A stretch of DNA of 64,000 nt, from positions 5,229 to 69,228 of the forward strand of contig JAUIEX010000002.1 of assembly GCA_030429725.1 (NCBI GenBank). Direction: 5' to 3'. This stretch comes from Alphaproteobacteria bacterium (GTDB lineage: Bacteria > Pseudomonadota > Alphaproteobacteria > Rickettsiales > UBA8987). The notes beneath the pieces are model-generated. The model saw only the letters and a list, made by a program, of their open reading frames with translations. It was not told the origin of the DNA and searched no databases. Made by a program: the position numbers and the translations under genes. Shown here in pieces: positions 31,475 to 49,779 of the stretch (within the stretch, counting starts at the first letter, position 1; the number at the start of each line of letters is the position of its first letter).

Positions 31475-32119
31475 CTATCTTTTAATCGCTTTAATTTCTG
31501 TCGTGAATTGCTGCGCTTTCTTATAATCTTCAAGTGCCTTTCTGGATTCACGCGTGCGGATACTTTCAAGCGCCCGGTGCGCACTGTTTTTAACCCAGTC
31601 ATCGTCATCCAACAACAGCCCTGCCAATTGAGGGACAAGCTCAGAGGCGGGTTTTCCAATCCTTCCCAAGGCATTCGCGGTTACTGCCCTGATTTCCGCA
31701 TCGTCATGGTTAATATAGCGCTTTAATGTTGGCAATGCATACACACCAAGACGCCGCATCCGCCCCAGCGCATATATGATATGGATTTCCATTTCTCGCT
31801 CACCTTCTTCCTCACGCAATAATTCTATCAGACGATGAATACCTTCCTTGCCCATATCTTCCAGCCCGTTGATCGCCTTCTCAAACATAACATTATTCGC
31901 TGAGCCAATATTATTGAGGTACATCTGCATGCGGAATTCACGCCGCTGCTCATCGGTAAAACCTTTCTGGGTTGGTGCTTCGGCCGCACGCTTGGCGGCT
32001 TCACTTTGCGGCTTTTCCTCGTCCTCTTCTTCTCCACCATGGGTGGAAGCCAGCACCGTATTCACAGGAGCGAAGGCAAAAAGCCCAACCACTAACAATA
32101 GTCTTATCCATTTTATCAC
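31475..32119 (-). CDS. Secreted HEAT-repeat protein
   Basis: Signal-peptide-like N-terminus (MIKWIRLLLVVGLFAFAPVNTVLAS), an acidic linker, then HEAT/PBS-lyase-type repeats (DAEIRAVTANALGRIG..., DDDWVKNSAHRALESI). The GTG start overlaps the stop of the upstream small ORF (GTGA). Confidence 0.6.
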   Translation of the reverse strand: MIKWIRLLLVVGLFAFAPVNTVLASTHGGEEEDEEKPQSEAAKRAAEAPTQKGFTDEQRREFRMQMYLNNIGSANNVMFEKAINGLEDMGKEGIHRLIELLREEEGEREMEIHIIYALGRMRRLGVYALPTLKRYINHDDAEIRAVTANALGRIGKPASELVPQLAGLLLDDDDWVKNSAHRALESIRTRESRKALEDYKKAQQFTTEIKAIKR

Positions 32120-33373: not shown

Positions 33374-33384
33374 GGTTTTCTCCT
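33347..33384. repeat. 38-bp direct repeat, copy 1 (RBS plus codons 1-9 of the fibre gene)
   Basis: GGCTAAATTCAAATTGGTTGTTGGCATGGTTTTCTCCT is identical to 34071..34108. Confidence 0.95.
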
Positions 33385-33426
33385 TATGGTGTTTAATACT
33401 TGGTCGTCTTGTGATAAAATCCACTC

Positions 33427-35042: not shown

Positions 35043-38000
35043 CTAAACACTCACCTCCGCCGGTCGGCCACGCCCAATGCGCTCGGACATTTGATAAATC
35101 TTCACACTCACGCTGCTTTGCGGGCTGCCAAAATCGCTTGTTTGATCCGCAGCGTCATAGCTAACGGATGGAGTGGAGGCACTCAGCGTGCGAACCACAT
35201 CTTCACCGTCCAGAATGTCGATCTCATAGGCTTCGGAGGCCTCCGAAAGCGGCACGTCCACACCATCCCGCCAGCTGCCGCCATGGCGCGTGCGGCGAAT
35301 CCAGCTGATCGTCAGGTTGCCCGCCCCATCACGCTCCCCCGCCACATGCGCAGGTGCATATGGCTTCAGCGCATTGGCATTGTAAGCAAAGCTCTGCGCG
35401 TTGGTTTCTCCCAGTGTTTCACCAATCGAAACCGCCTTATAGAGCCGCGACAGGCCAATCAGCCCATCCGGCATATTCACCTTACCGATGCGGCTATCCA
35501 GCAGCACGAAATCATCCCCTGCCGCATGGCTTACAGTGGCATGCTCCGTGCCCAGCCGCCCGCGCAGCAAGCCACTTAAGCGATATTCACCCGCACTCAC
35601 CAGAGTTGCAGTGGTAAACTGAATCACCTCCCCGCCCAGCAGTGCCGCATTGGCGCCGTTCAGTAATGCCTCCGTAGAAACACTCTCCAGCGTGCCGTTG
35701 GAAAGCAGCACGGTCACATTATTTGCAACATCCATCACACCCGCCGCGCCATCCGCCAGCGCCGTAATGGCTTTGCCCATCACCGCCCGATTATTATTCA
35801 CCAGCACCTGCCCATAACGCGCACCGCCATCGTCCGAGCGATAGAGAATACTGCCCTGCCAGCCGGATTCCTCCCCGCTAACGGCCACCCGCAGCAAAGC
35901 GTCCTCTGCATCATCGCCGGCCAGCAGCGGCACATCCAGCAGCTTCAACCGCGTGGCGCCCGCCGGCACTTCCGCCTGAGTGCTGCCGCTTGTTTCCGCC
36001 GCCGCGGCGTCACTTTCATAAAGCGCCACATCCTCCGCAATGCCTTTGCAACGAAGGCGCCCACCTTCTTCCAGCGTGGTTTCCATAATGCGAATCGTGT
36101 GGCTTTGGCCGTTGCTTGTCACCGTCACCACATCGGCAGGAGAGATTGCCGCATATTTCGGCGGCAGGATAAACTGATAACGCATCCTCGCCGTCCAGGC
36201 CTGACACAGCGCCACATCCGCCGCCATCTTGCCGCGCTCATCCCCCATCACGATCGGGAAATTGATGATATGTTTTTGATCGCTCGCTACGGATTGCCGC
36301 GACGCACGCTGGGTGCCGATCTGATAATCAAAACCCCGGCTGAGGTAATTCACCTCCACCGCTTTGGGCAGATCGGCCTCCTGCCCGCGTGTGATGGCCA
36401 GATGCACCGCCTTTCCACGCTGTTTGAAGGGCACCAATTCATCCTCGGCAATCGTTACCGCAGACGCATTGCCGCGCGGCAGATAGTCCACCTGCCCGTC
36501 TTCTTCCCGCGCATCAAAAAAATACGCTGCCTGAAGCTGCGCAATGGCACTTCGCGCACTCACCGGCTGTTTCAGCACATAGCCTTCCACCAAATCACTC
36601 AGCTTGGTAACATCCATTTCACCACTATTTAAGCCCGCACGCAGCCCAATATCCTGCACAATGGCGGCAAGGGAAGATAACCCCATTTTACCATTCACCC
36701 AATGCCCGGTTTTCCATAATCCGCCATCGGTCCAGATATTTGTCATTTCCGGCCAGAAGGAAAATGGCCGCGCATCCCATGTCCAGACAAATTTTTGCTC
36801 CACCATGGTAGAGCCTTCCCACGCGGTTTCCGTGGCCTGCAACCCTAAACGCTGCGCAGAATTATCCACCCGCCCGCGTGAAAAGCGCGGAAAGTAGCTC
36901 TCCGAACTGGTCGGGTCATAAAACACATTCGGCTGGTTGGTTGCCCCATCTACGGATGGAAAACCATATTCCGTGAACCAGAATGGCTTGGATTCCGGCA
37001 CCCAGGCAGTGGTGCTGGCATCCGGGTTCACATGCTCATTTTCCCAGAACCATTGCAGATTTTTCCACGCATATTGTGGGCTGATCGCCGCCTGCGTCGT
37101 TCGCGCTTCATCCGTATATACCCAGTCATACCCCTCCCCGCTTGTCCAGCCATCAATGGCTTTTTGCAGGGTGATGCCGCTTTGCGGCTCATCCGTCAGC
37201 GGGAAATAGGCATCAATGCCGATAAAGTCGATATTCGCCGAAGCCCAGAGCGGATCAAGATTATACCAGCCATCATCCGTGTGGTGATATTCGCTCCAAT
37301 CCGCAGCATAGGTCACCTTCGTGCCACTACCCACAATCGCCTTTACACTGGCCGCCAAGCTCACCAGCGCGTCCACCGCCGGGAAGGAATCATCCCCACT
37401 ATCCTGCACGGAAGTTAAGCCCACCAGCTCCGAACCAATGACAAACGCATCCACATTCGAAGCATCTGCCAAGTTCGCATAATGCGTTATAAATTCATTA
37501 TAACCATTTGTTTTTGTAAAGAAATTAGCAACATTACTAACGCTCCCCGTCACCCGGCCGCGCCATGGCTTATTTTCCGTATCCATAAAAAACATCGGGT
37601 ACAGCATCACCTGATAGCCCCGGCTTTTCAGCTCCCCTATCAACCGCGCAACCGAAGCATCCGAAGGCGTGCCGCCATAAACCGGGTTACCATTTTCATC
37701 GAGCGAAATTTGCGGTGCGGAGGCACGATCCCAACTGCCCACGCCCCACTGATCCGGCTCTGTTGTCGCGCCATCTTTATATTCCACATAGGGCTTGATC
37801 GTACAGCCCCCGGCGTCCACATCATCCCCAAACCATGTCACCACAACACTCACCCATTCTAGGTTTGGAAAAGTGGCCTCCAGCTGATCCAGCGACGCCA
37901 GCACATCCGCCTTGCCGCTCACATTATTCTGGTTAATGCGCACCTGCTCACCGCTTTCGAAAAAATCATCGCCAATCTGCTGGCCAATCAGTTTTTTCTG

Positions 38001-38693
38001 CACGTTGGTGTCATACACAAACTCCCCGGAACCGGGAATCATCGTCATCGCCGTAATCTGCTCTTCCAGCGGCGCATCACCACTATTAAGCGCAGATTTA
38101 CGCACCTCAAACGTAAAGTTAGGAATACGATTGCCAAATTGCTCAAGCGGAAAATCCTCAATCACCACATACGCCACCCCGCGATAAGCCGGCACAAAAC
38201 CACTACCAAGCTCCGCCTCCATGGCAGAATCCGGCAATTGATCTTCCGTTCCTTTATACAGGCGATAAACACCTGAATAGTCATTGATATTAATGGTTTT
38301 AGCATCCGCCCACACGCGCACCACCTCGTCAATCTCCCCTTCGCAAATCGCAATGGCCAGCGTCACGCTATAGCTATAGCTGGTCTGGGAAACACTGCGG
38401 CCGCTGCCGCCCTTGCCGCTGCCGGATTCTGTCGTCGTAGCACTTTCCATAATCGGCTTAGACCAGATCACATTGCCCGCCACACGCGCCGTGCCATAAA
38501 GCTGCGGCACCATGCGGCCATAGGTGGAGGTTTGCACCTGCAAATCTTCCAAGCGCGGGCCTTCCACCACCAGCTTCTGCCCGGGCAACACACCCAGCGC
38601 AGTATCAATCTGCGCGCCCAGCTGAATGCCTTGCAGCGCAAGGCCAATATCCCCCGAAGCCGCTCCTGCTGCGCCTAATACAAGTGTAGTCAT
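35043..38693 (-). CDS. GTA g15-type host-specificity / baseplate protein
   Basis: 1216 aa. The N-terminus (PRLEDLQVQTSTYGRMVPQLYGTARVAGNVIWS...SYSYSVTLAIAICEGEI) and the central glycoside-hydrolase-like region are typical of RcGTA ORFg15 homologues. It is in the last structural gene position. Confidence 0.85.
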   Translation of the reverse strand: MTTLVLGAAGAASGDIGLALQGIQLGAQIDTALGVLPGQKLVVEGPRLEDLQVQTSTYGRMVPQLYGTARVAGNVIWSKPIMESATTTESGSGKGGSGRSVSQTSYSYSVTLAIAICEGEIDEVVRVWADAKTININDYSGVYRLYKGTEDQLPDSAMEAELGSGFVPAYRGVAYVVIEDFPLEQFGNRIPNFTFEVRKSALNSGDAPLEEQITAMTMIPGSGEFVYDTNVQKKLIGQQIGDDFFESGEQVRINQNNVSGKADVLASLDQLEATFPNLEWVSVVVTWFGDDVDAGGCTIKPYVEYKDGATTEPDQWGVGSWDRASAPQISLDENGNPVYGGTPSDASVARLIGELKSRGYQVMLYPMFFMDTENKPWRGRVTGSVSNVANFFTKTNGYNEFITHYANLADASNVDAFVIGSELVGLTSVQDSGDDSFPAVDALVSLAASVKAIVGSGTKVTYAADWSEYHHTDDGWYNLDPLWASANIDFIGIDAYFPLTDEPQSGITLQKAIDGWTSGEGYDWVYTDEARTTQAAISPQYAWKNLQWFWENEHVNPDASTTAWVPESKPFWFTEYGFPSVDGATNQPNVFYDPTSSESYFPRFSRGRVDNSAQRLGLQATETAWEGSTMVEQKFVWTWDARPFSFWPEMTNIWTDGGLWKTGHWVNGKMGLSSLAAIVQDIGLRAGLNSGEMDVTKLSDLVEGYVLKQPVSARSAIAQLQAAYFFDAREEDGQVDYLPRGNASAVTIAEDELVPFKQRGKAVHLAITRGQEADLPKAVEVNYLSRGFDYQIGTQRASRQSVASDQKHIINFPIVMGDERGKMAADVALCQAWTARMRYQFILPPKYAAISPADVVTVTSNGQSHTIRIMETTLEEGGRLRCKGIAEDVALYESDAAAAETSGSTQAEVPAGATRLKLLDVPLLAGDDAEDALLRVAVSGEESGWQGSILYRSDDGGARYGQVLVNNNRAVMGKAITALADGAAGVMDVANNVTVLLSNGTLESVSTEALLNGANAALLGGEVIQFTTATLVSAGEYRLSGLLRGRLGTEHATVSHAAGDDFVLLDSRIGKVNMPDGLIGLSRLYKAVSIGETLGETNAQSFAYNANALKPYAPAHVAGERDGAGNLTISWIRRTRHGGSWRDGVDVPLSEASEAYEIDILDGEDVVRTLSASTPSVSYDAADQTSDFGSPQSSVSVKIYQMSERIGRGRPAEVSV

Positions 38694-38854
38694 AGAGAAT
38701 CTCTGTGGTTAAAAGTTAATTATTTTTTATATAACGCCATGCAAAGCGGCGTAACTTTAGGCATTCCCTGCACGCACCAATGCAAAAAAGCCTTTTATAT
38801 AAATGACTTGAAAAAAAAAACGATCTGTTAGAATTAAGTTACAATCTTTTGAAT

Positions 38855-38977
38855 ATGGAAGCATTTTCAATATGCCTGATGTTATTTGGTGTGTGCGTTT
38901 CAATTGGAGCCTTAACGGCACAGCTTAAACGCATCGCCGATTCATTAAGCGATAAGAATCAGGAAACTGATTCTTAA
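38855..38977 (+). CDS. Possible 40-aa single-TM ORF on the opposite strand inside the g14-g15 spacer
   Basis: ATG ORF MEAFSICLMLFGVCVSIGALTAQLKRIADSLSDKNQETDS. TTGAAA-15 nt-TAGAAT lies upstream. No clear RBS. Weak support. Confidence 0.2.
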   Translation: MEAFSICLMLFGVCVSIGALTAQLKRIADSLSDKNQETDS

Positions 38978-39090
38978 GCTTAGCCCCAAGCCTTTGGGCG
39001 ATATGATGCGTCATCACTGGCTCGTTCCAGTAACGCAAGCATACTCGTTTACAAAAAGGCTTCGGGGCTTTTTTATTTTCCACTTCTCTC

Positions 39091-39726
39091 CTAACGAAAT
39101 TCATACACCCCCACCAAGCGCCGCTGCCAGCTTGCATCAAAATGCGTTTCCACCACCTTCCCGGCCGGCAGATAGGCATGGATGAGGCGGATGTTAGGTT
39201 CGTCATTCCCAACTTGATTGGGAATCCAGTCTATTTTTTTATTTCCTGGATCCCGGGTCGGATCCTGATACTGCGCATCAGGGCCGGGGATGACAGCACC
39301 GGGAAAACTTTTCTCACTGCCCACTGCGCACTGCTCACTAAAAACCAAACCAACATGCTGCGGCTGATGACGCATGCGGAACAAGCCAATCCGCACATCA
39401 TTAGTAACTCCCCCCTCGTGGGGGAGTCGGAATCTTTGACTCCGGCGGGGGGGGAAATTATTTCCCTCGTTACTCTTCTCTCTTTCATCTTGAATAAAAT
39501 GCCGCCCCAGCATCATCTGCAAACGCTCGCCATCCGGCTCACGCGGGTAATCCCGCTCATCATAATCTGCCACAAGCCCGCCAGAGGCGGAAGGGAGTTT
39601 TAATGCCCGCGCCACTTCCACAATCAGCCCAATGCAATCCACTCCCACGCCCCTCACCCGCCCCTGATGGTGAAATGGTGTTTCCAGCCAGCTGCGTGCC
39701 TCGGTGATTATTTCTTCATTACTCAT
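39091..39726 (-). CDS. GTA g14-type NlpC/P60 cell-wall peptidase carrying repeat-derived in-frame insertions
   Basis: N-terminus EARSWLETPFHHQGRVRGVGVDCIGLI (catalytic Cys context), then LFRMRHQPQHVGLVF and IHAY...VVE (His contexts). At 211 aa it is longer than the ~150 aa I recall for g14 homologues. The extra segments coincide with repeat DNA. Confidence 0.8.
   Translation of the reverse strand: MSNEEIITEARSWLETPFHHQGRVRGVGVDCIGLIVEVARALKLPSASGGLVADYDERDYPREPDGERLQMMLGRHFIQDEREKSNEGNNFPPRRSQRFRLPHEGGVTNDVRIGLFRMRHQPQHVGLVFSEQCAVGSEKSFPGAVIPGPDAQYQDPTRDPGNKKIDWIPNQVGNDEPNIRLIHAYLPAGKVVETHFDASWQRRLVGVYEFR
39315..39342. repeat. 7-nt periodic array inside the g14 coding sequence
   Basis: CACTGCC CACTGCG CACTGCT CACTAAA, translated on the minus strand as FSEQCAVGSE. 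Confidence 0.6.
39405..39458. mobile_element. MITE-like half element, copy C, in frame inside g14
   Basis: TAACTCCCCCCTCGTGGGGGAGTC followed by GGAATCTTTGACTCCGGCGGGGGGGG matches the reverse complement of the right end of copy D. It is read through as FPPRRSQRFRLPHEGGVT. Confidence 0.8.
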
Positions 39727-39935
39727 TGTAATACCTAGATAAATTGAAAAATAGATGAGACATTATTGTTTAGAGTGCTTTCGCTTTTCTTTGGTGCTAG
39801 GCAGCCAAGGTGAATAAAATTTTAGCGTACCTTTGATGAGCGGTTGCGCTGTGCGCAGAGCGAATCAACAAAAATGCCTACATGAATTTTCCGAATCCGA
39901 TGGCTAACAAAGCGCACGACGGAATGAAAAATGCT

Positions 39936-40778
39936 CTAGCGTGTTCCAGCTGTTTTCAGCATCGCATCCGTGCCCGGAACATGCGGAAAGCCCCTGAAAT
40001 TACTTATATTATTAAACCGCTGACGGCAGGTGGTCAGCGTTTTATCACACCCGCCAATCAGCGAATAGCCATCCCCCACCTCCACGTCATAGGGCATGGG
40101 CAACATCAATGTCAGCTCACCGTTATTAAAATATTTCACCTCCATGCTCAGGCCGTCATTTGCCCCGCCAGTGAAAATTATCTGCCCGTGATTAAACAAA
40201 CCGGCCGTTTCACTGCGTGCTGAATCTGCAAACACCGTGCGGCTGGTCACCGCGGTCACCGTCCCCGTCACCGTATGCGCAGCCAGATTCACCCCGCAGC
40301 GCCCGTCACCAAGCTCAGCGTCGCAGCCGGGGGTAAATAACCGCCCGATAGTGGTATCCAGCTTTTGCATCAATCCGCGCAACTCCGCTGTGAAATGGCC
40401 CTCCCCGGTCTGCACCTCACCAATCCAGCCCGTGCGCAGATTCATCACCCCATCTTCAGGGGATTCCGCATTCATCAAAAAGAGCGAAACTTCCGCATAA
40501 TCGTATTTTCCGGCCAGAATATCGGCCTCCGTAATTGCTTCATCATCCAGAAGCCCCAGAAGTTCCAGCGCATCCACCGCCAGATCATCCCGCCCCTTCA
40601 CCGCAGAGGCATTAAAACCACTGCCAGCCTGATAGGTTACGCTGTCATATTCAATATCCTGATCATGCTCCGTAAAGCCAAGCACGGCACCATCACGCCG
40701 TGTTATTTTCCAGCAGGTGGCCAGGCTGGTCAGCTCGCCACCCAGATGGGTTTGTAAATTTGCAGAAACTGTTTTCAT
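39936..40778 (-). CDS. GTA g13-type tail hub protein (DUF2163 / BR0599 family)
   Basis: MKTVSANLQTHLGGELTSLATCWKITRRDGAVLGFTEHDQDIEYDSVTYQAGSGF..., 280 aa, with a C-terminal Cys-containing region. Confidence 0.85.
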   Translation of the reverse strand: MKTVSANLQTHLGGELTSLATCWKITRRDGAVLGFTEHDQDIEYDSVTYQAGSGFNASAVKGRDDLAVDALELLGLLDDEAITEADILAGKYDYAEVSLFLMNAESPEDGVMNLRTGWIGEVQTGEGHFTAELRGLMQKLDTTIGRLFTPGCDAELGDGRCGVNLAAHTVTGTVTAVTSRTVFADSARSETAGLFNHGQIIFTGGANDGLSMEVKYFNNGELTLMLPMPYDVEVGDGYSLIGGCDKTLTTCRQRFNNISNFRGFPHVPGTDAMLKTAGTR

Positions 40779-40821
40779 TGAAGTCCATTCATCGTTAAAA
40801 GTGAAGTGATCGTAGCATCAT

Positions 40822-40898
40822 GTTCCCGTAGCTCAGCAGGATAGAGCAACAGATTCCTAATCTGTAGGTCGGAGGTTCGAATCCTCTCGGGAACACCA
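40822..40898 (+). tRNA. tRNA-Arg (anticodon CCT)
   Basis: Manual cloverleaf. Acceptor stem GTTCCCG/CGGGAAC, D stem GCTC/GAGC, anticodon stem ACAGA/TCTGT with loop TTCCTAA, 5-nt variable loop, T arm GGAGG-TTCGAAT-CCTCT, discriminator A, encoded CCA. Confidence 0.9.
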
Positions 40899-41013
40899 TT
40901 CATTCTTTTTAAGGGTTAAGCAACAGCGCCTTAAAAAGGATGGATAATTTTCATTTGAGGATGAGAACAATGTTCGAAACCGAGGGCAACAGCCCGCAGG
41001 TTCGGCGAAGCCA

Positions 41014-41032
41014 ATCCTCTCGGGAACACCAA
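41014..41032 (+). repeat. Duplicate of the tRNA-Arg 3' end (att-like scar)
   Basis: AATCCTCTCGGGAACACCA is identical to 40880..40898. It is preceded by AGGTTCG (40999..41005), which resembles the T arm. Confidence 0.85.
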
Positions 41033-41037
41033 CAGCC

Positions 41038-41640
41038 CTAAACCCGCACTTCCACCAGCGGGATTGGGTTCACGGCAAAGGCGCCATAATCCTGCAGGCT
41101 GACGGAAAGCTGATCCACATCAAACCGCACCGGCACATCAAATTCAAAATCCGCCTGAATTGCCACCCCGCCACCCGGCGCACTATCAAACGTCACCTCG
41201 CCTGTGGCGGCATCCACAGTAACACCACTGCTTTGCAGCACGGAATCCAAATAGATATTCACCGTGCTATCCACCGGCTTGGTGATGTTGCGTGTTTCAG
41301 TGCGCGCACCACTTTGATAGGTCTTCACCAGCTGGAACACGGTGGTTGCACCATCGCCCGCGCCAATCACCTGCCCGGTTGCCTGATAATCCGCATGATC
41401 CTTGAAACGAAAGCCATAGGCACGCCCTTTGCGGGCACGAAAAAACGCAATCAGCGTATCCAGCTCCGCTTGTGTTTTCACCCCACGCGCCACATTATAA
41501 CGCGCGCGCGCCGCACTCCAATTCACATTGCGCTGTTCATACCCATTGGCAAGCATCACAATATCCGTGGCATATTCCGGCCCCCCGGTGCTGCCATAGG
41601 CAATGGCATCGGGAAAGCGCACTTCATCAAAAGCGGCCAT
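41038..41640 (-). CDS. GTA g12-type distal tail protein (DUF2460 family)
   Basis: MAAFDEVRFPDAIAYGSTGGPEYATDIVMLANGYEQRNVNWSAARARYNV...LIAFFRARKGRAYGFRFKD, 200 aa. Confidence 0.85.
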   Translation of the reverse strand: MAAFDEVRFPDAIAYGSTGGPEYATDIVMLANGYEQRNVNWSAARARYNVARGVKTQAELDTLIAFFRARKGRAYGFRFKDHADYQATGQVIGAGDGATTVFQLVKTYQSGARTETRNITKPVDSTVNIYLDSVLQSSGVTVDAATGEVTFDSAPGGGVAIQADFEFDVPVRFDVDQLSVSLQDYGAFAVNPIPLVEVRV

Positions 41641-41700
41641 ATTTATTCCTAATGTTTTAGGTTAAATTATTATTTTAAATAATTGATTATAATTGCATTA

Positions 41701-42387
41701 TCACGCAACAGTTCCGCGCCGTTGCCCGCGCTCCGGCGCAAACTCATCCGCACGATTGAGGGATGGCTTAAATTCCTGCTCATTACCAATGCCTTCCAGC
41801 AGCGCACCCAAATCAAACGCGTGCTTCATGCCATTCTCCATTTCTTCCATGCGGGCATAATGACGCTCCGTCTGCACAATGGCCACCATCATATGCTGGC
41901 GCTCGGCAATATCCGCCATCTGATCCGGCGTCAGATCTTCCACGGACAGCTCACTATTACTGCCATCCAGATAATCCCCCAGTTTTTGGGCAAGTTTGTT
42001 CATGCCCTGCATGCTAACCGCCACGCCAAGCTTATCCAGCGCCGTGGTGAGTTTTTCTTTCATTTCCAGTGAAAGTACACGATCTTCTTCCGTCGCATAA
42101 CTTCCTGAATCACTATTATTTTCGGATGAAGCATCACCACTACCATCCACAATGCCCCCGGCATCCGCAGGGATTTCTCTAAAACCACGCGGATCATCAA
42201 AACCCGCATTCGCGTCTTCCGCCGCGCCTTGATTTGACACCGGCTGGTCGGCCGGCATGCCGTTAATCATCCTTGTTAATTCCGGTGGCAATTCAAGCAA
42301 ACTACGCACACCGGCACCGGCAAGGCCACTGCCAATTTTCTGCGCTTCTGCTGCCAATGCATCATAACTCATAGTTAAATATACCAT
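41701..42387 (-). CDS. Acidic 228-aa protein at the tape-measure (g11) position
   Basis: Assignment is by position only (between the major tail module and the g12-like gene). It is acidic, low-complexity and helical. I see no similarity to the Gly-rich RcGTA g11 sequence as I recall it. Confidence 0.3.
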   Translation of the reverse strand: MVYLTMSYDALAAEAQKIGSGLAGAGVRSLLELPPELTRMINGMPADQPVSNQGAAEDANAGFDDPRGFREIPADAGGIVDGSGDASSENNSDSGSYATEEDRVLSLEMKEKLTTALDKLGVAVSMQGMNKLAQKLGDYLDGSNSELSVEDLTPDQMADIAERQHMMVAIVQTERHYARMEEMENGMKHAFDLGALLEGIGNEQEFKPSLNRADEFAPERGQRRGTVA

Positions 42388-42418
42388 AAAAAGCTTTAAA
42401 ATTCATTAAAATAATACC

Positions 42419-42715
42419 TTAATGACCACCTAAATTAAGAAGTGATTCAAAAATATTGCTACCGCCATCCGCAGAAAAACGCCCACCGGACGCCCCCACC
42501 CCGTCTGAAAGACCGGAAAGCTGCTGCACAAAACCTGAAATTTCCTGAAATTGCTGAATTAATCGCAACATATCCTCCAATTGTTTCAGGCCATTGGTAA
42601 AATCATCGCTTATAATTGAACGAAACTCACTTCGCAAAATGCGGCTTGTGCGGAGCAATGTTTCCATTTGCGCCTGCATTTCCTGCAATTGATTTGAGCT
42701 TAAATTCTCTTCCAT
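42419..42715 (-). CDS. 98-aa coiled-coil protein at the tail-chaperone (g10) position
   Basis: Assignment is by position only. It starts 9 nt after the major-tail stop. Helical heptad-rich sequence with a Gly-rich tail. Confidence 0.3.
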   Translation of the reverse strand: MEENLSSNQLQEMQAQMETLLRTSRILRSEFRSIISDDFTNGLKQLEDMLRLIQQFQEISGFVQQLSGLSDGVGASGGRFSADGGSNIFESLLNLGGH

Positions 42716-42724
42716 ATCAAACCT

Positions 42725-43135
42725 TTAAGCAGCGTTATAAGTAACATTTCCGGAGGATTGCAGCACCACGCGCACCTCCTCCGCACCGTTGATTGCCCCC
42801 TGCCGCTGATAATCCCTGATCATCGCCGGAAGCACCATGTCATCCCCATTACCAAAGCTCACTTTTACATTGGCCGCCGCGCCATTAAAGGCCATTGCCC
42901 GCAGGCTTTCTTCCACTGAAGCATCCGTAAAAAGCCCTTCCAGCGTCAACTGCACCTGCGCAATGCCACTTTCACCCAGCTCCTTCTGCCATGCACCGCT
43001 GGTGACATACACGGCCGGCACCGGGCGGCGCTGAATGCGAAGCTCTGTCACGCGCACACCCGGCAATAACGTAAACACTTCCGGATCCGCACCATCACCC
43101 AATGCACATGTTAAATTTTTACCCGCCTGAATCAT
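42725..43135 (-). CDS. GTA g9-type major tail protein (TP901-1 family)
   Basis: 136 aa. ...VTSGAWQKELGESGIAQVQLTLEGLFTDASVEESLRAMAF... matches the RcGTA g9 pattern. Position fits. Confidence 0.8.
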   Translation of the reverse strand: MIQAGKNLTCALGDGADPEVFTLLPGVRVTELRIQRRPVPAVYVTSGAWQKELGESGIAQVQLTLEGLFTDASVEESLRAMAFNGAAANVKVSFGNGDDMVLPAMIRDYQRQGAINGAEEVRVVLQSSGNVTYNAA

Positions 43136-43143
43136 AGCTCAAC

Positions 43144-43548
43144 CTATTGTTTTTGAATACGAAATCTTATTAAACACTCAGCCTGATAGCCAATCACATC
43201 GCGGTGCACTTCCGCCTCAACGCCCTCCAGCCAGTGGTCAATCACCGCGTGGTTAGATAACGCTAAATTCGAGGCCTCCAACACAGCCACCGCCCTTTCG
43301 ATAATCTCAAGCACCGTCAGGCGTGATGGCACATCGCTATGCGCGCGCAAAACAACATCCAGACGCGAAATATCCACGTTCAATGCCGGTTCACTCACAG
43401 ATTCAGTCATGTTAATTAAGAGATAGGGCGATTCAGCGCCTTGCGGTGCATGGTCATAAATCCCGCTAACCAGCGCCGCCAATGTTGCATCCGCCGTCAG
43501 CTCACTATAAATCGCCGCTTGAAGCTCTTTCCAGCCCAAAGCACTCAT
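43144..43548 (-). CDS. GTA g8-type tail completion protein (DUF3168)
   Basis: 134 aa, LTADATLAALVSGIYDHAPQGAESPYLLI. ATGA overlap with the upstream gene. Confidence 0.75.
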   Translation of the reverse strand: MSALGWKELQAAIYSELTADATLAALVSGIYDHAPQGAESPYLLINMTESVSEPALNVDISRLDVVLRAHSDVPSRLTVLEIIERAVAVLEASNLALSNHAVIDHWLEGVEAEVHRDVIGYQAECLIRFRIQKQ

Positions 43549-43898
43549 AACGCCACCCCACTTTCAGCAATAATGTCCAACTGCTCTTTGCGCCCCGTTG
43601 GATCAGACAAACTCCGAATATTGAGCATTTCATCCTGATAACAGATACTCATAGATTGAGTTAGATTATCCTTATATCGTATTGTTATTTTATATTTTTT
43701 CTTATTATTAATTTTACCATTTTCCATAATCTCTTTACTGGCCTGCGCAGGCGAATATGGCAGAACTTCCGCCCAGACCGTGCCAATATTCACCCAACTC
43801 ACCGTAAAACCTCCGGCAAAATCGGATGTGCGAACAGGATTACGAAAACTAATGCGTGATGTCAGACGGGATGCCAGAATATCTTTTTTCATCACCAC
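43545..43898 (-). CDS. GTA g7-type head-tail adaptor / head-closure protein
   Basis: 117 aa, RISFRNPVRTSDFAGGFTVSWVNIGTVWAEVLPYS... typical of SPP1 gp16 / HK97-type adaptors. Confidence 0.8.
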   Translation of the reverse strand: MVMKKDILASRLTSRISFRNPVRTSDFAGGFTVSWVNIGTVWAEVLPYSPAQASKEIMENGKINNKKKYKITIRYKDNLTQSMSICYQDEMLNIRSLSDPTGRKEQLDIIAESGVAL

Positions 43899-43899
43899 C

Positions 43900-44442
43900 T
43901 CACAAATAAATCACGCGGTAAGGGTCATATTGCATCAGCGTATCGGGCGGCAGATTTGTCTGGCCACGATGCTCAAACATATAGGCCACATGCGCCAGCA
44001 AGCCCTGTTGAATATCATAGGGAACCTGGCTGGCATCGCCATAACCCGCCACATATTCCACCTCCACCATGTGCGCCACGGGGGAAATATCGAACCGCAA
44101 TGCGGCATTCCCGGCCGAAAGCGTATAAGCACTGCCGGATAATGCCTGTGAAGTGCCGTCACGTGTGGTCAGCGTCACCGCCATAATTGATTGCACGGGC
44201 CCACGCATCAATTGCACCCGGGCGGGCGCAAAATCATCAAAACCCATTTTCCAGCGCTGCGTAATCAGCGAACGCCGCATGAATTTCTCCGCTGCCAGCC
44301 GCGCTGCGCGAATCATCTGCAGCAAGGTGATATCCTCATCCTGCTCATCAATTTTTAGGTATAATTTTGTTTCTGCCAAACTGAGTGGCTCCGTTGACGG
44401 AGCAAGAGTTTGGGTTAAATGCGGCATGCGTGATGTCAGCAT
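43900..44442 (-). CDS. GTA g6-type head-tail connector (gp6-like)
   Basis: 180 aa, LSLAETKLYLKIDEQDEDITLLQMIRAARLAAEKFMRRSLITQ... is a connector-family N-terminus. Confidence 0.8.
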   Translation of the reverse strand: MLTSRMPHLTQTLAPSTEPLSLAETKLYLKIDEQDEDITLLQMIRAARLAAEKFMRRSLITQRWKMGFDDFAPARVQLMRGPVQSIMAVTLTTRDGTSQALSGSAYTLSAGNAALRFDISPVAHMVEVEYVAGYGDASQVPYDIQQGLLAHVAYMFEHRGQTNLPPDTLMQYDPYRVIYL

Positions 44443-44501
44443 GGATAGACTCCAGGAATTGGGATTACAGAGATAATGTGAATAGTGTGCAGTGTTCGGT
44501 T

Positions 44502-44670
44502 TAACTCCCCCTTCACGGGGGAGTCTGAATTTCGAGCGTGAGCGAAGAAATTCAGGTGGTGGTTTCTGCCGATCGAAGGCAGAAAACAGAGGACTGACGA
44601 GCTAATTTCTGACTTCTGACTAACCCCCACCGGAATCAGAGATTCCGACTCCCCCGTAAAGGGGGAGTTA
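44502..44670. mobile_element. MITE-like nested-hairpin repeat, copy D
   Basis: Left end TAACTCCCCCTTCACGGGGGAGTC (44502..44525), right end GACTCCCCCGTAAAGGGGGAGTTA (44647..44670). Internal pairs are TGAATTT/AAATTCA and TTTCTGCC/GGCAGAAA. Confidence 0.85.
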
Positions 44671-44719
44671 TAGCTTTTTCTCTTTAACTGCTCATTACCC
44701 ACTGCATACTGCTTACCAA

Positions 44720-45130
44720 CTAAGCCACCGGTGCATCGGCAGCCTGGGATTGCAGTGCCACGGCGGCAATCGGCGCATTGCCGGTATTGCCTGCCGGCGT
44801 AATAGTCAGGCGCACATAGCGCTTGCTGCCATTGTAACCAATCTTCTTCACCACATCGTCATTGGCAAAGGTGAAGGAAGCATCCGCTTCCGTGCCTAAC
44901 AGATTCGCATCCGCCACGGCTGCCGCGTCACTAAGGTCACTGGCGTCACCCTCTTCCACCAGCGTGGTGAAGGTGGCATCGGCGTCAGCCAGCGTGCCGG
45001 TCAGAATGCCAAATTCCAGCGTGTTAAAGCCCTGCATGTCAATGATCTGGCTCACCGCCGCCGTGTTATCCGTAATCACCGCCGGGCTGATCGCACGGCT
45101 GAGTTTAATGTTGTTATGGAGGTCTTTCAT
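44720..45130 (-). CDS. 136-aa phage head-associated protein (possible decoration/cement protein), not in the canonical RcGTA set
   Basis: An intact ORF between the capsid and connector genes, bracketed by MITE copies D and E. Ala/Asp/Thr-rich beta-type sequence ending ...KKIGYNGSKRYVRLTITPAG... The family name is not recognised with certainty. Confidence 0.4.
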   Translation of the reverse strand: MKDLHNNIKLSRAISPAVITDNTAAVSQIIDMQGFNTLEFGILTGTLADADATFTTLVEEGDASDLSDAAAVADANLLGTEADASFTFANDDVVKKIGYNGSKRYVRLTITPAGNTGNAPIAAVALQSQAADAPVA

Positions 45131-45169
45131 AGTGTTATCCTTTTTTGTGATTTGTTAGATTGTGAACTC

Positions 45170-45381
45170 TAATTCCCCCCTGAATGCCCCGAAGCGCGAA
45201 GCGCGTGGGGCGATTCAAAATGTGGGGGAGTCGCAGAGCCGCTTGCGTAGCGCGGCGAAGCGTGGGGGGGGCATTTTACAAAAAGATTGCTCAGCAAAAT
45301 AATCAAGGCCGTGTGTTCCTTGAACACCCCCCACGACTCACACCTTCGGTGCTCGTCTGCTCCCCCTCAAGGGGGGAGCTA
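45170..45381. mobile_element. MITE-like repeat, copy E (subfamily 2, with a nested insertion in its left hairpin)
   Basis: TAATTCCCCCC [TGAATGCCCCGAAGCGCGAAGCGCGTGGGGCGATTCAAAATG] TGGGGGAGTCGCAGAGCCG... ...GCTCCCCCTCAAGGGGGGAGCTA. It is collinear with copy F apart from the bracketed insertion. Confidence 0.8.
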
Positions 45382-45393
45382 TTTTTACGCAAC

Positions 45394-46584
45394 CTAAGAA
45401 GCCAATTTCAGCAGTTTGATGGCCTCAAAGTTCACCACATCACCGCCCACACGTTTGGTGCTATAGAACTTCACGAACGGTTTTTCAGTGTACGGATCAC
45501 GCAGGATGCGAACACCCGCACGGTCAACAATCTGATAGGCACGGCTGAAATCACCCACCGCCACGGAAAGTGTGTCCGTATCCGGCGTTGGCATATCCGC
45601 CGCCTGAAGCACAGGAACGCCCATCAGCGTATCCGGCGTGCCCGTCACCAGACCCGGATTCCACAGATACTGATTCGTGGTCGCTTCTTTCAGCAACCGC
45701 GCCTGCTGCACGGCAGAACGGCTCATCAGGAAGGTGGCGCGGGTGGCATATTCCTCTTTCAGTGCATAGAAAATCTGCACCAGACCATCGGCTGTCACCT
45801 GCCCGTCCGTGCCGGAGTCGATCTGTTCGATCTGCCCCCAGCCTGTGCCGGCATCATAGCTTAAGATGCCGCGCGGCTTGCCCACTCCGTCCCCGGAAAT
45901 AAACGCCGTGTTTTCCTTGCGGGTAAACACATCCGTCAGCTTGCCGGAAAGCCAGCCTTCAATATCCACGCTCGCATCATCAATCAGCTTTTGTGTTGCT
46001 TTGGGTTGAGCGCGGAGTTCATGCACAGGGATGATCTTTTTATTCACCTGCGGTGTGGTGGTATCGGAAATGCTGTCTGCCTCCGCATACCAGCCCGCGC
46101 CGGCCTCATCCTTATCCACAATCACTTCCAGCGAATCGGAGGAAATCGTCTCCACCGCCGCCAGTTGACGCATAGGGGAAGATTCAAACACCGTCTTAGC
46201 AATGGTTTGTGCCATGGTTGGCGTCACCAGATAGCCGCCATCCGGGTCGGAAGCCGCAGAAAGCGCCTTCTTCTCAAGGTAGGAAAGTTCTTCCTCCACA
46301 CCTTTGCGCAGATAGTTACAAAAGGCGGTCTTATGATCGCGCACATCAGGGCTGGCAATGGTAGCACCCCCCATCTCCGGCCGGCTGATGGCCGTTTCCA
46401 GCGTATGCATCCGGCTCTTTTGCTCATCCAGCGCGTTGGAAATGCGCCCCAAATGCTCTGTTGTCAGCGCGTCGGCATTGCCTTTGCGCTCAATTTCCTG
46501 CAAGCGGCGATCATTGATCGACTTAAACTGCTCCCAGGTGTTGCCAAGCGTTTCCATACGCTCCGTTAATTCACGTAAACTCAT
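45394..46584 (-). CDS. GTA g5-type major capsid protein (HK97 fold)
   Basis: 396 aa with an N-terminal coiled-coil delta-like region, then an HK97-family body (...GGYLVTPTMAQTIAK..., ...NQYLWNPGLVTGTPDTLMGVPV...). Confidence 0.9.
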   Translation of the reverse strand: MSLRELTERMETLGNTWEQFKSINDRRLQEIERKGNADALTTEHLGRISNALDEQKSRMHTLETAISRPEMGGATIASPDVRDHKTAFCNYLRKGVEEELSYLEKKALSAASDPDGGYLVTPTMAQTIAKTVFESSPMRQLAAVETISSDSLEVIVDKDEAGAGWYAEADSISDTTTPQVNKKIIPVHELRAQPKATQKLIDDASVDIEGWLSGKLTDVFTRKENTAFISGDGVGKPRGILSYDAGTGWGQIEQIDSGTDGQVTADGLVQIFYALKEEYATRATFLMSRSAVQQARLLKEATTNQYLWNPGLVTGTPDTLMGVPVLQAADMPTPDTDTLSVAVGDFSRAYQIVDRAGVRILRDPYTEKPFVKFYSTKRVGGDVVNFEAIKLLKLAS

Positions 46585-46671
46585 ACGATTTCTCCTTTGT
46601 GATGAGTTGGTTAGTTAGAGTAAAGTAGCGCCGTCGCTATAAAGCGCGCGAGCCAGTAACCGCCTGCCTTA

Positions 46672-46828
46672 TAACTCCCCCCTCGAGGGGGAGTCGCAGA
46701 GCCGTCTACGTAGCACGGCGATGCGTGGGGGGGCCGCCTGAATACAACTATAACTGAATGACCCCCCACGACTCCGCGTCGCTGCATGCGCAGCTTGCTT
46801 CGTCCGCTCCCCCTCAAGGGGGGAGCTA
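46672..46828. mobile_element. MITE-like repeat, copy F (subfamily 2)
   Basis: Left end TAACTCCCCCCTCGAGGGGGAGTC (46672..46695), right end GCTCCCCCTCAAGGGGGGAGCTA (46806..46828). Its last 3 nt are the protease stop codon. Confidence 0.85.
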
Positions 46829-47383
46829 GTAGTGAAGCGCCCGCTCCGCTTTTTCCACGGCCCGTAGCAACCGTTTCAGCATCAGCGGGGAAATCTCCTC
46901 CGGCAATTCGGCCTTCTCCTCACGCTTCACACTGGTCACCGTTGCCAATTCATTGGCGGGGAAAGTGACCAGGGAAACTTCCCACAAATCCGCCTGCAAA
47001 ATCTTCCGCACGCCGGTTTCCGGATTCACCTCCGTCTGCTTGGCGGTATAGCCAATGCTTAACCCATCCAGCGCGCCGGATTGCAGCAGGCTGTGCGCCT
47101 CCCGCGCCCGCGCCACATCCAGCAGCAGCTGCCCCTCCACATAAAGCCCGCGCCTGTCCTCACGGATGGTGGTCAACACGCCGATAGGCTCCTCCGGCTT
47201 ATGCTGCCACAGCAGCTTGATATCCGCCGGCTTCTGCGCCAGCAAACTCTCACGGAATGCCCCGCGCATCACAACATCCTTCTGCCGATCCGTCACCTCA
47301 AACACGCTGGCATAGCCGGAGAAAAACCCGCTCTCCTTCACATCCTCCAGCATCAAACTGCTTGCTAACTGTTTCTTTTGCAT
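46826..47383 (-). CDS. GTA g4-type prohead protease (HK97 family)
   Basis: 185 aa, GFFSGYASVFEVTDRQKDVVMRGAFRESL...LLWQHKPEEPIGV... Confidence 0.88.
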   Translation of the reverse strand: MQKKQLASSLMLEDVKESGFFSGYASVFEVTDRQKDVVMRGAFRESLLAQKPADIKLLWQHKPEEPIGVLTTIREDRRGLYVEGQLLLDVARAREAHSLLQSGALDGLSIGYTAKQTEVNPETGVRKILQADLWEVSLVTFPANELATVTSVKREEKAELPEEISPLMLKRLLRAVEKAERALHY

Positions 47384-47397
47384 GATTTCTCCTATTT

Positions 47398-47530
47398 CAA
47401 CTCCCCCTTCATGGGGGAATATGCAGTAAAAAATTATTCCCCCCTGGTGGGGGAATCGACATCTATGATGTCGATGGGGGGCACCCTCACCGGAATCAAA
47501 GATTCCGACTCTCCCATCAAGGGAGAGTCA
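47398..47530. mobile_element. MITE-like repeat, copy G (composite/diverged)
   Basis: CAACTCCCCCTTCATGGGGGAAT..., ATTCCCCCCTGGTGGGGGAATCGAC/GTCGATGGGGGG..., CCGGAATCAAAGATTCCGACTCTCCCATCAAGGGAGAGTCA. Confidence 0.7.
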
Positions 47531-47585
47531 TTGCCTACTGGCTCGCAGATCACCCTGTCATCCTTGAGGGCAAGAAAAAGTTTCT

Positions 47586-47664
47586 GTCATTCCAGCGAAA
47601 GCTGGAATCTCTAACCTCTTGCACTGATCATTATCCAGAGATCCCAAATCAAGTTTGGGATGAC
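47586..47664. mobile_element. Second small hairpin-ended element (GTCATTCC...GGAATC type)
   Basis: GTCATTCCAGCGAAAGCTGGAATC (47586..47609; 8-bp stem, GAAA loop) and the inverted ATCCCAAATCAAGTTTGGGATGAC (47641..47664). A relative, GTCATTCCCAACTTGATTGGGAAT, lies inside g14 (39203..39225). GTCATTGCGAGG...GCAATC lies at 32408..32444. Confidence 0.6.
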
Positions 47665-47682
47665 AAAAACGCCCCCTACGCA

Positions 47683-47710
47683 CTGCCTACTGCCTACTGC
47701 CTACTGCACA
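47683..47710. repeat. Heptamer tandem array abutting the portal stop codon
   Basis: CTGCCTA x3 plus CTGCACA, then the stop (CTA at 47711..47713). On the mRNA strand this reads TAG TGTGCAG TAGGCAG TAGGCAG TAGGCAG. Confidence 0.9.
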
Positions 47711-48976
47711 CTACTCCCCATCAACCCCCGCCAGCTTCCGTTTCTCGTCCTGTGTCAGGAAATCCGCCTCATTCAGCCGCTTCCACAGCTTTTCCCGGCG
47801 CAGCCCAAGCGCGTGAATGCCATCCACATCATAACTCAGTTTCAGCGCATGCCCTTCCCTTTGCGGGAACATCGGCACCAGCCAGCCATTCAGCGCCGCC
47901 GCGAAATGATCCAGCATCGGCAGCACAGTCTGCTCCCACAGCGCCAGCCGCGCTTCCGCTAAATTGCTATAGGTATTATCCCCGGGAATGCCCAGCAGCT
48001 GCGGCGGCACCCCAAAAGCCAGCGCAATGTCGCGCGCGGCGGAATGCTTCGCCTCCATAAAATCCATATCTTTCGGCGAAAGGCTCATCTCCTGCCATTC
48101 CAGCCCGCCTTCCAGCAGCAGCGGCCTTCCTGCATTGGCAGCACCTGAAAATTGCTCCTGCATTTCCGCTTTCAGGCGGTCAAACTGCTCATCGGAAAGG
48201 TTGCCACTGCCCTCCCCCTTCACCACCAGCGCGCCGGATGGCTTTGCGCCATTCTGTAATAAAGCCTGATTCCACTGCGCCGCCTGATTATGCTGGTCAA
48301 TGCTATAAGCCGCCGCTTCCACCGGGGAAAGCCCATGCCAGTCATCCGTCGGGTGGAAGGTTTTTAGATGCAATATCTGCGACCTGCCCGTAATCGCATC
48401 CACCGGATAGCGCCTGGTCACACCATCCACCGTATAATCATAGGCCGCCGGCAACCCGCCCCGTCCGGCAATCACCTGCACCCTGTCCGGGCGCAGCGTA
48501 TAAATCTCACGCGGCGAATCCGCACCCACCGCCAGCAAAAACACATTGCCCGCCAGCAAACGCTGCACCGCCATATTCTCTATAAGCTCCGTACCCTGAC
48601 AGCGCGGGGATGGGCACTCCATCAGGCTTAAAAGCGGATGCTGATTCACCGCAACCGCACCCTCCGGCCTTTGCATGGAAAGCTTCCATGGCACACTGGC
48701 CGCGGCCTCCGCCACCATGCGGATGGCGCGGTGTGCAATCACATTCCGGCGATAAGCCTCCTCCGCAAAGCGGGCATAATCCCGCCCCATCCACACTGCC
48801 TTGCCAGGTTGCGTAAAATAGGTTGAGGTTGCAGATGCCAGCGGCAGCGCATAGTCCGGCGCAAATTGTTTCGCCTCGTTGTTGCTGCCATTGGCCGCAT
48901 CATTACCGGTAAGAAGGTTAAATAGTCCCTGCATGCGGGACGGCTTCGCCCCGCGTTGTTTCTGCGCTTTGCTCAT
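47711..48976 (-). CDS. GTA g3-type portal protein (HK97 family)
   Basis: 421 aa, ...RNVIAHRAIRMVAEAAASVPWKL...LLAGNVFLLAV...HPTDDWHGLSPVEAAAYSIDQHN... portal-family sequence. Confidence 0.9.
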   Translation of the reverse strand: MSKAQKQRGAKPSRMQGLFNLLTGNDAANGSNNEAKQFAPDYALPLASATSTYFTQPGKAVWMGRDYARFAEEAYRRNVIAHRAIRMVAEAAASVPWKLSMQRPEGAVAVNQHPLLSLMECPSPRCQGTELIENMAVQRLLAGNVFLLAVGADSPREIYTLRPDRVQVIAGRGGLPAAYDYTVDGVTRRYPVDAITGRSQILHLKTFHPTDDWHGLSPVEAAAYSIDQHNQAAQWNQALLQNGAKPSGALVVKGEGSGNLSDEQFDRLKAEMQEQFSGAANAGRPLLLEGGLEWQEMSLSPKDMDFMEAKHSAARDIALAFGVPPQLLGIPGDNTYSNLAEARLALWEQTVLPMLDHFAAALNGWLVPMFPQREGHALKLSYDVDGIHALGLRREKLWKRLNEADFLTQDEKRKLAGVDGE

Positions 48977-49122
48977 GAAAAATCCTGTGTGATGTCTGTA
49001 ATAAGAAGCAGTATGTTTGTTACTATCCGCTCTTGATATTTTCAGAATACGCTAACTTCCAAAACCCGGAAGGGGGAAAGTTTGCCTCCGTCTATTTTTT
49101 TAAAACGGCTGAAATCAAACGA

Positions 49123-49404
49123 TTAATTGTTGAATAACTCAGCATGAGAACCCATTCGGATAAACAGAATAACGTTATTATCTTCATCACGTTCATAAAT
49201 GAGGAGCCAATCGGGCTCAATATGCAAATCACGGCATCCACGAAAATTTCCCGTCAATGCATGATCCTTATACCGCTCAGGCAGTGGAATATTATGGTAT
49301 AAAAACTCGTTAACATCCTTAAATTTCTGTATATCTTTGCCCTGTTTTTGGCAACGTTTTACATCACGCTTAAATTTTGCAGTCCATTTAATGGCATAGG
49401 GCAT
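49123..49404 (-). CDS. yafQ: YafQ-family type II toxin (ribosome-dependent mRNA interferase)
   Basis: MPYAIKWTAKFKRDVKRCQKQGKDI...LPERYKDHALTGNFRGCRDLHIEPDWLLIYE... aligns closely with E. coli YafQ as I recall it (YKDH.L.G...RD.H.EPDW.LIY). ATG 49404 is internal to ORF 49123..49410. Confidence 0.85.
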   Translation of the reverse strand: MPYAIKWTAKFKRDVKRCQKQGKDIQKFKDVNEFLYHNIPLPERYKDHALTGNFRGCRDLHIEPDWLLIYERDEDNNVILFIRMGSHAELFNN

Positions 49405-49456
49405 CACCAATTTTTATACATAAAATTACCTTTCTGCAAGGATGGAACTCTCTCTG

Positions 49457-49717
49457 CTAAATCCCCAGATCGTTATAGAATTCCTCCAATGATTCGGCGC
49501 GGTGAACCCGCCCCTCCTCAGCATCTTTCATGGCGGCCAGCGTCGTTTCATTTGGAATTTTGGCAACCGGCTGAAAGGGTAGACCACCCATCGTGACGGA
49601 TTGATGCAAAAACATCCGCACCGCATCCTGCGTGGAAAGCCCCATGGAAGCAAACAGCGCATCCGCCGCGCGCTTAATTTCTCCGTCCACACGGGTTTGT
49701 ATGAGTTCTCTGGCCAT
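49457..49717 (-). CDS. dinJ: DinJ/RelB-family antitoxin
   Basis: MARELIQTRVDGEIKRAADALFASMGLSTQDAVRMFL...LPF...ending YNDLGI. It parallels E. coli DinJ, including the C-terminal LGI. A GGAGG RBS precedes ATG 49717. Confidence 0.85.
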   Translation of the reverse strand: MARELIQTRVDGEIKRAADALFASMGLSTQDAVRMFLHQSVTMGGLPFQPVAKIPNETTLAAMKDAEEGRVHRAESLEEFYNDLGI

Positions 49718-49750
49718 AATCAGCCCTCCGGTAATATATGTTGCACTATG

Positions 49751-49779
49751 ATTATACCGCCAAACATAGCATTCAACAA
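49751..49779 (-). promoter_or_regulatory. Sigma70-like promoter of the dinJ-yafQ cassette
   Basis: On the minus strand: TTGTTG (49774..49779), a 17-nt spacer, then perfect TATAAT (49751..49756). The inverted repeat ATGCA-N8-TGCAT just upstream (49820..49837, + strand) could be an operator. Confidence 0.5.

Follow-up and report, generated by a model that had tools for sequence, protein, structure and literature searches.

Why does a tRNA gene lie on the opposite strand between two tail genes of a GTA cluster, and why does its 3' end recur shortly beyond it? We addressed these questions in a stretch of 64,000 nucleotides from an alphaproteobacterial contig, referred to here as the window. The features that frame the problem are as follows.

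35043..51262, minus strand: RcGTA-like head-tail cluster (Pfam and NCBIfam matches)
39936..40778, minus strand: g13-like gene (baseplate hub; PF09931 and PF09356; BR0599 family), full length, with homologues aligning from residue 1
41038..41640, minus strand: g12-like gene (DUF2460), full length, with homologues aligning through residue 200
40822..40898, plus strand: tRNA-Arg(CCT) gene of 77 nt with encoded CCA (ARAGORN; Rfam tRNA; Logan contig L008)

The cluster encodes terminase, portal, protease, capsid, connector, head completion, tail completion, tube, g11, g12, g13, g14-like and g15 proteins. These families follow the conserved order on a single strand (minus), and none of the genes is truncated. 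The g15 product carries the GTA_TIM, Phage-tail_3 and Rcc01698_C domains. The g11 gene is a 228-aa ORF (41701-42387) which has no family match and is assigned by position and size only. The g14-like gene is an NlpC/P60 gene (ORF 39091-39726, 211 aa) whose match to the phage NlpC/P60 model TIGR02219 is confined to the first 89 residues, with 53 bits against a cut-off of 82. The flanking genes encode a GyrB/ParE-type topoisomerase subunit, HisF, MutS, malic enzyme and an RTX protein. Among the larger ORFs in or beside the cluster no integrase was found, nor any replication or lysogeny module. Judged by its gene families and their order, the housekeeping flanks and the absence of an integrase from these ORFs, the locus is an RcGTA-like head-tail cluster and not a prophage. 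The gap between g12 and g13 spans 40779-41037 (259 bp), with the g13 start at 40778 and the g12 stop codon at 41038-41040. The original prediction had placed a tRNA gene, antisense to the GTA genes, in a 259-bp gap bounded by the g13 start and the g12 stop; the gene families, coordinates and strands all agree with that description.

Several genes at the borders of the cluster were also noted. A 585-aa RTX calcium-binding-repeat protein with a serralysin C-terminal domain (51660-53417, minus strand) is encoded directly upstream of terminase, between the GTA cluster and the GyrB/ParE-type gene. Downstream of g15 lie a gene for a fibre- or spike-like protein with DUF2793 and a K1-lyase C-terminal domain (32480-33424, minus strand) and then one for a HEAT-repeat protein (31475-32119, minus strand). 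The relatives L170 and L172 have DUF2793 genes after g15 as well.

The tRNA gene had been described as well formed, and both programs support this description. ARAGORN called it at 40822-40898 on the plus strand as the sole tRNA in the window, and Infernal scored it against Rfam RF00005 at 71.6 bits (E = 1.5e-15; gathering score 29). In the RF00005 alignment every stem pair is Watson-Crick or G-U, with no non-canonical pair. Read directly from the sequence, the acceptor stem is GUUCCCG/CGGGAAC. The D-loop contains GGA (A20), the anticodon loop is UUCCUAA with C35 and U36 present, and the T-arm is GGAGG-UUCGAAU-CCUCU; discriminator A73 precedes the encoded CCA. A20 and A73 are arginine identity elements known from work in E. 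coli. With its intact cloverleaf stems, CCU anticodon, A20 and A73, the gene has the features of a canonical elongator tRNA-Arg, and we regard it as a functional-looking chromosomal gene for tRNA-Arg(CCU). No sigma-70-like promoter site was predicted upstream of it, and its expression is assumed here.

The 3' end of this gene is present twice, in an exact direct repeat of 19 bp.

40880..40898, plus strand: repeat copy 1 (tRNA positions A58-A76), attL-like core
41013..41031, plus strand: repeat copy 2, an attR-like displaced 3' fragment of the tRNA, 6 nt short of the g12 stop codon
40899..41012, plus strand: interval of 114 bp between the copies (45% GC), the presumed element remnant

The repeated 19-mer is AATCCTCTCGGGAACACCA. 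Within the window it occurs at these two sites only, even with up to three mismatches allowed, so that it is not a common repeat within these 64 kb. None of 100 shuffles matched it, and the chance recurrence of one 19-mer is about 5e-7. The copies are separated by 114 nt and start 133 nt apart. The original prediction was right that the last 19 nt of the tRNA recur exactly, but its second copy began one position too late (41014, after 115 nt, instead of 41013, after 114 nt). The limits of the 19-mer coincide with landmarks of the tRNA, as it runs from A58 in the middle of the T-loop to the last A of CCA (A76). Compared at the offset of 133 nt, the sequences agree at 15/58 positions ahead of the block, at 19/19 inside it and at 4/20 beyond it. 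An ungapped repeat of 30 nt (25/30 identical) was also reported, to which the extra 11 nt contribute little. The T-arm-like AGGTTCG said to precede copy 2 does so at a distance of 8 nt (GCGAAGCC); its likeness to the tRNA did not hold up, since neither this 7-mer nor any other tRNA-like snippet of the spacer can be told from chance (p = 0.13 forward, 0.35 reverse).

Other repeats were sought around the block and rejected. Further tRNA-like fragments in the spacer (GTTCGAAACC, AGCAACAG and the inverted GAGGATGAGAAC) were not significant. A larger island that would comprise the module from the head genes to g12 was considered, and no third copy of the fragment was found in the window with three mismatches allowed. 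A target-site duplication flanking the tRNA block was likewise dismissed, the shared 8-mer CCATTCAT being at chance level. A precise loss of the 133-bp unit would join ...GGTTCGAATCCTCTCGGGAACACCA directly to ACAGCCCTA.

Could the repeat be a product of assembly or of chance? An independent Logan assembly of run SRR24442552 (L008) agrees base for base with the window over g13, the tRNA and the 37 nt that follow it, which confirms the order of g13 and tRNA. The Logan contig ends at 40935, so the remaining 100 bp or so, from there to g12, stand on the NCBI contig only, and this join is the one place where an artefact could be sought. The 19-nt repeat is, however, too short to cause a misjoin at usual k-mer sizes. 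On either side the NCBI contig gives back the universal g12-g13 order, and it is not credible that an erroneous join would recreate this synteny by accident. A coincidental repeat has to contend with the expectation of about 5e-7 given above. Taken together, an assembly artefact or chance repeat is the least probable of the explanations considered here.

Sublocation classes of tyrosine-integrase integration into tRNA genes were reportedly set out by Williams in 2002. Such integrases act on the 3' portion of a tRNA gene: after recombination the incoming element makes the gene whole again, and the original end comes to lie on the far side of the element (PMC4383910). The arrangement in the window can be read in the same way. 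A prophage or genomic island with a tyrosine integrase would have recombined with the 3' end of tRNA-Arg(CCU), the attP sequence of the element would have regenerated the tRNA, and the original 3' end would have been pushed to the far side of the element. The element would later have been deleted down to 114 bp, and this remnant may now supply the terminator of the tRNA. The region 40880-41031 would then consist of attL, a 114-bp remnant and attR of a decayed integrated element. An end fragment lying downstream in the same orientation, together with a sharply bounded block from T-loop to CCA, makes this the best reading, and we put its probability at about one in two. We infer both the integrase event and the deletion from this geometry.

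We compared the locus with the criteria that the Islander database applies to tRNA-integrated islands (PMC4383910). It agrees with them in tDNA, end fragment, configuration, orientation and CDS overlap. The target gene is intact, as judged by the ARAGORN call and the 71.6-bit Infernal score. The 19-mer (A58-A76) is an end fragment and not an internal one, as it ends at the last base of CCA. The 3' fragment lies 114 nt downstream with both copies on the plus strand, and it ends at 41031, whereas the g12 ORF including its stop codon extends from 41038. It departs from them in integrase and length: the interval holds no ORF of at least 50 aa, and it measures 114 bp against 2-200 kb for islands. 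Because no integrase lies between the copies and the interval is only 114 bp, the structure is at most a scar. Islands with a 3' fragment are the common kind in Islander (3760 vs. 159 with a 5' fragment), and for 1836 islands attP falls in the region of the T-stem (PMC4383910). The idea of an integrase scar, as first proposed for this locus, thus stands in the geometry of the displaced 3' fragment, but no integrase, cargo or related element was found to go with it.

We then examined the spacer itself. The 114-bp sequence is unique within the window and all fetched loci, and a dispersed repeat or MITE was therefore rejected as its source. It contains no ORF of at least 50 aa and has no match in phage or plasmid collections. 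BLAST of the whole 259-bp gap against phages and plasmids gave generic tRNA similarity of at most 85% only, with the spacer unmatched. The 19-mer was not found as an att site in phage, plasmid or IMG/VR contigs, which counts against the scar reading. Its single IMG/VR match, weighed as a possible phage att site, falls in coding sequence with no tRNA and was set aside as chance. The most prominent structure in the spacer directly follows the tRNA.

40899..40957, plus strand: hairpin followed by the U-rich tail UAAUUUUCAUUU (fold and z-score)

The core stem of this hairpin is formed by CTTTTTAAGG and CCTTAAAAAG at 40905-40914 and 40929-40938, and it extends over 40899-40945 as plus-strand RNA. 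A hairpin with a 10-bp stem had been described at 40905..40938, and its position was confirmed. The plus-strand hairpin folds with -19.1 kcal/mol (z = -4.63), whereas the minus-strand version gives -14.2 kcal/mol and lacks the U tract. With its U-rich tail on the tRNA strand only, the predicted structure resembles a terminator that would act on the tRNA but not on the GTA transcript. It was absent from a simple terminator scan because of its AT-rich stem and long loop.

The folding data also bear on whether copy 2 is functional and kept by selection, either as the end (...ACCA) of a cloverleaf-like RNA formed with the upstream 55 nt or as an antisense site in the GTA mRNA. The segment 40955-41022 is predicted to fold into a multi-branched structure (-23.8 kcal/mol; z = -2.6) with the 19-mer's AUCCUC paired to GAGGAU at 40957-40962. 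This fold speaks for a functional copy 2, but the z-score is modest, the acceptor stem has no partner, and the segment has no Rfam or ARAGORN match. Moreover, the comparison yielded no homologous sequence for covariation, and the terminator-like hairpin lies upstream of the segment on the tRNA strand. We consider a selected function for copy 2 very unlikely.

How the tRNA came to lie between g12 and g13 can be approached through relatives. The comparison set comprised 167 other loci with g13 homologues, taken from genomes, metagenomes and IMG/VR, to which three further relatives with long contigs were added later. The window has no close neighbor among them. Its best g13 homologue among 5.8 billion proteins is 60% identical, and a g13 search of 185,579 species genomes gave 7 loci with at most 54% identity. 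EF-Tu (10855-12030, plus strand), g12 and g13 each form a singleton 90%-identity cluster among about 15 billion proteins. These singleton clusters and the lack of a closer g13 match suggest that the DNA comes from what appears to be a poorly sampled alphaproteobacterial lineage, and synteny is thus comparable at 38-60% identity only. For 152 of the 167 loci we could place g12 as well as g13. They overlap by 4 nt in 82 of these 152 clusters, and the gap is below 39 nt in 128 (the 82 overlapping ones included). None of the 152 has a tRNA at the g12/g13 junction, so that an antisense tRNA at this place occurs in 1 of 153 clusters, the window's own. In the closest relatives with long contigs no tRNA was found within 10 kb.

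In the remaining 24 of the 152 clusters (within loci L010-L167) the junction holds inserts of 39-4042 bp. Staphylococcal-nuclease (SNase) homologues are present in L063 and L096, a lysozyme in L147, an antisense glyoxalase in L119, an antisense DUF3800 protein in L079 and a SASA esterase in L163. The largest insert ORF is antisense in four loci (L019, L079, L080 and L119), and in the loci with antisense ORFs g12, g13 and g15 are full length. Near relatives of the window also have widened junctions, of 567 nt in L011, 421 nt in L019, 107 nt in L030 and 100 nt in L031. These unrelated inserts and widened junctions indicate that the g12/g13 junction is a recurrent insertion point, tolerant in many lineages. 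The g13/g14 junction also looks variable among the compared loci. A chimeric cluster joined at the tRNA was considered too, and rejected: the best relatives of g12 are also those of g13 (r = 0.66), and the junction therefore does not mark the meeting of two different clusters. As a separate observation on the tail module, L170 and L172, which are among the closest relatives with long contigs, carry four large genes (about 300-650 aa, no Pfam match) between tail completion and g12, in the place expected for tube and tape-measure genes (L170:3449-9195 and L172:3036-9327). In L173, tail completion is followed directly by g12.

Given such a junction, there are two options for the arrival of the tRNA. 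It may have been there first, with its flanks of 43 nt to g13 and 6 nt from the fragment to g12, or a block of about 250 bp may have come in as a moron-type insert. In the latter case the tRNA, its terminator and an already old scar would have been copied from their original chromosomal locus by one illegitimate-recombination event, the integration having taken place earlier and elsewhere. The readiness of the junction to accept unrelated DNA of 39-4042 bp (24 of 152 clusters) fits this proposal, as do the undamaged g12 and g13 at 6 nt and 43 nt from the block and its GC content of 47%, compared with 54-56% in the neighboring genes. However, the 64-kb window contains no donor locus or second copy, and the spacer is unmatched in the window, the fetched loci and the phage and plasmid collections. 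We hold this copying event to be improbable as it stands. Since it still requires the integrase event, it is in any case a variant of the decayed-element explanation and not an alternative to a scar.

A tRNA inside or abutting the tail module was found in only two other loci, L011 and L162. In L162 (3187-3274, an IMG/VR contig) a tRNA-Ser(GGA) lies 40 nt past the g13 homologue on the same strand, with no flanking repeat. In L011, whose g13 is 55% identical to that of the window, a tRNA-Ser(CGA) lies on the GTA strand after g14 (L011:5371-5596). The first 17 nt of this tRNA, along with the 3 nt before it, recur without a mismatch 133 nt upstream; this spacing equals the start-to-start distance in the window. 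A 23-nt tandem repeat (5397-5442) lies between the two copies of the 5' end.

This second case is relevant to the main true rival of the scar reading, a tandem local duplication with a period of 133 nt. Slippage or unequal recombination would have duplicated the whole tRNA or its 3' end alone, and copy 2 would have decayed except for its last 19 nt; no integrase is needed. Such a duplication would account for the absence of integrase and cargo, and the weak snippets AGCAACAG and AGGTTCG are collinear with the tRNA in order. The repeat in L011 is again 133 nt away, but it is a 5' end and lies upstream, and since islands with a 5' fragment exist (159 in Islander), L011 fits the integrase model too. 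The snippets are non-significant, with p = 0.13 and 0.35. More tellingly for the present locus, neutral decay should not yield 19/19 beside 15/58, and the limits of the block match tRNA landmarks as att cores do. A tandem duplication is therefore possible, but in our estimation unlikely.

The case for the decayed element as a whole can now be weighed. In its support, the junction is permissive (24 of 152 clusters), and g12 and g13 are both intact and have their best relatives in common. Against it, no integrase or coding remnant was found among the ORFs checked, either between the repeats or beside the cluster, and the 114-bp interval is far smaller than any real island. The model leaves the origin of the tRNA between g12 and g13 unexplained, and no promoter-like site was found for the gene. 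In addition, the nearest g13 homologues are 60% identical, and the relatives examined have no tRNA at the junction.

The antisense position of the tRNA raises the question of whether g12 and g13 can still be transcribed together. The original prediction held that they were unlikely to share one transcript, as transcription would collide with expression of the tRNA. This objection is unsupported. The hairpin is directional, no terminator-like or promoter-like site was predicted on the GTA strand in the 259-bp gap, and antisense protein genes occupy the same junction in other intact clusters (L019, L079, L080 and L119). GTA transcription thus probably still reads through the antisense tRNA, as far as the predicted signals tell. 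Translation is a different matter. The 4-nt overlap, which probably couples translation of g12 and g13 in most clusters, is certainly lost here, and for g13 direct reading gives only a weak GGA seven nt upstream of the ATG.

We also considered whether the tRNA might serve the codon demand of the GTA genes. Per 1000 codons, AGG occurs 3.3 times in the GTA genes against 1.5 times in the window's housekeeping genes; the portal gene accounts for 6 of the 14 AGG codons. A weak difference of this size is expected in a comparison with highly expressed genes, so it makes no case for a GTA-specific role of the tRNA, and this explanation was rejected.

A tRNA with a displaced 3' fragment is a well-known kind of feature, produced by an ordinary mechanism and here in a moderately unusual location. 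The scar itself is textbook biology; the locus is a curiosity whose value is descriptive and which offers no new mechanism. If the scar reading holds, an antisense tRNA and an att site have been absorbed by a GTA operon, usually a compact and translationally coupled unit, while its genes all kept their full length. Together with the 24 other insert-bearing clusters among 152, this would mark g12/g13 as a soft junction in GTA evolution. The locus also lends itself to testing, in a natural setting, whether GTA tail genes depend on a single uninterrupted transcript. A stronger version would make g12/g13 a true hot spot of gene capture, which here took up, along with an att site, the sole tRNA-Arg(CCU) gene of the cell; we regard this as decidedly doubtful. 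If it were true, an essential housekeeping gene and a live integration target would sit inside a GTA operon, retention of the GTA tail module would be tied to an essential tRNA, and the operon would be exposed to disruption by every element targeting tRNA-Arg(CCU). It would also document the relocation of a tRNA gene by an integrative element.

Among known systems, defective remnants at tRNA-Arg(CCU)-type sites provide a close parallel. E. coli argW is said to be a tRNA-Arg(CCU) gene with a prophage remnant, CPS-53/KpLE1. In S. meliloti, tRNA-Arg(CCU) (gene 050) is single-copy and prophages integrate there (PMC11476347), so the same isoacceptor is the target. Unlike the structure in the window, the remnants in S. 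meliloti and at E. coli argW are kilobases long, retain recognisable phage genes and lie in an ordinary chromosomal context, not in a GTA operon. The wider family of tRNA-integrated islands and prophages (PMC4383910) shares with the window an intact tRNA followed by a 3' fragment in the same orientation, with a block from T-loop to 3' end. It differs in carrying an integrase and cargo and in a minimum length of 2 kb, compared with 114 bp and nothing beyond att-like repeats and a hairpin here.

The block also resembles phage morons and phage-borne tRNAs, as a small self-contained unit with its own terminator-like hairpin, placed between structural genes where other lineages carry additional, unrelated genes. 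In contrast to morons, it is antisense and has no predicted promoter, and AGG is only slightly commoner in the GTA genes. The usual rationale for phage tRNAs does not apply, since a GTA does not replicate its own genes. The cluster itself is like RcGTA of R. capsulatus (g1-g15, rcc01682-rcc01698) and other alphaproteobacterial clusters in having the same families in the same order from terminase to g15 and housekeeping flanks with no integrase. In place of the 4-nt overlap found in 82 of 152 RcGTA-like clusters, it has 259 bp and an antisense tRNA between g12 and g13. It also differs from RcGTA clusters in its long g13/g14 (209 bp) and g14/g15 (397 bp) spacers at 38694-39935, spacers of about 300 bp being frequent elsewhere in the window too.
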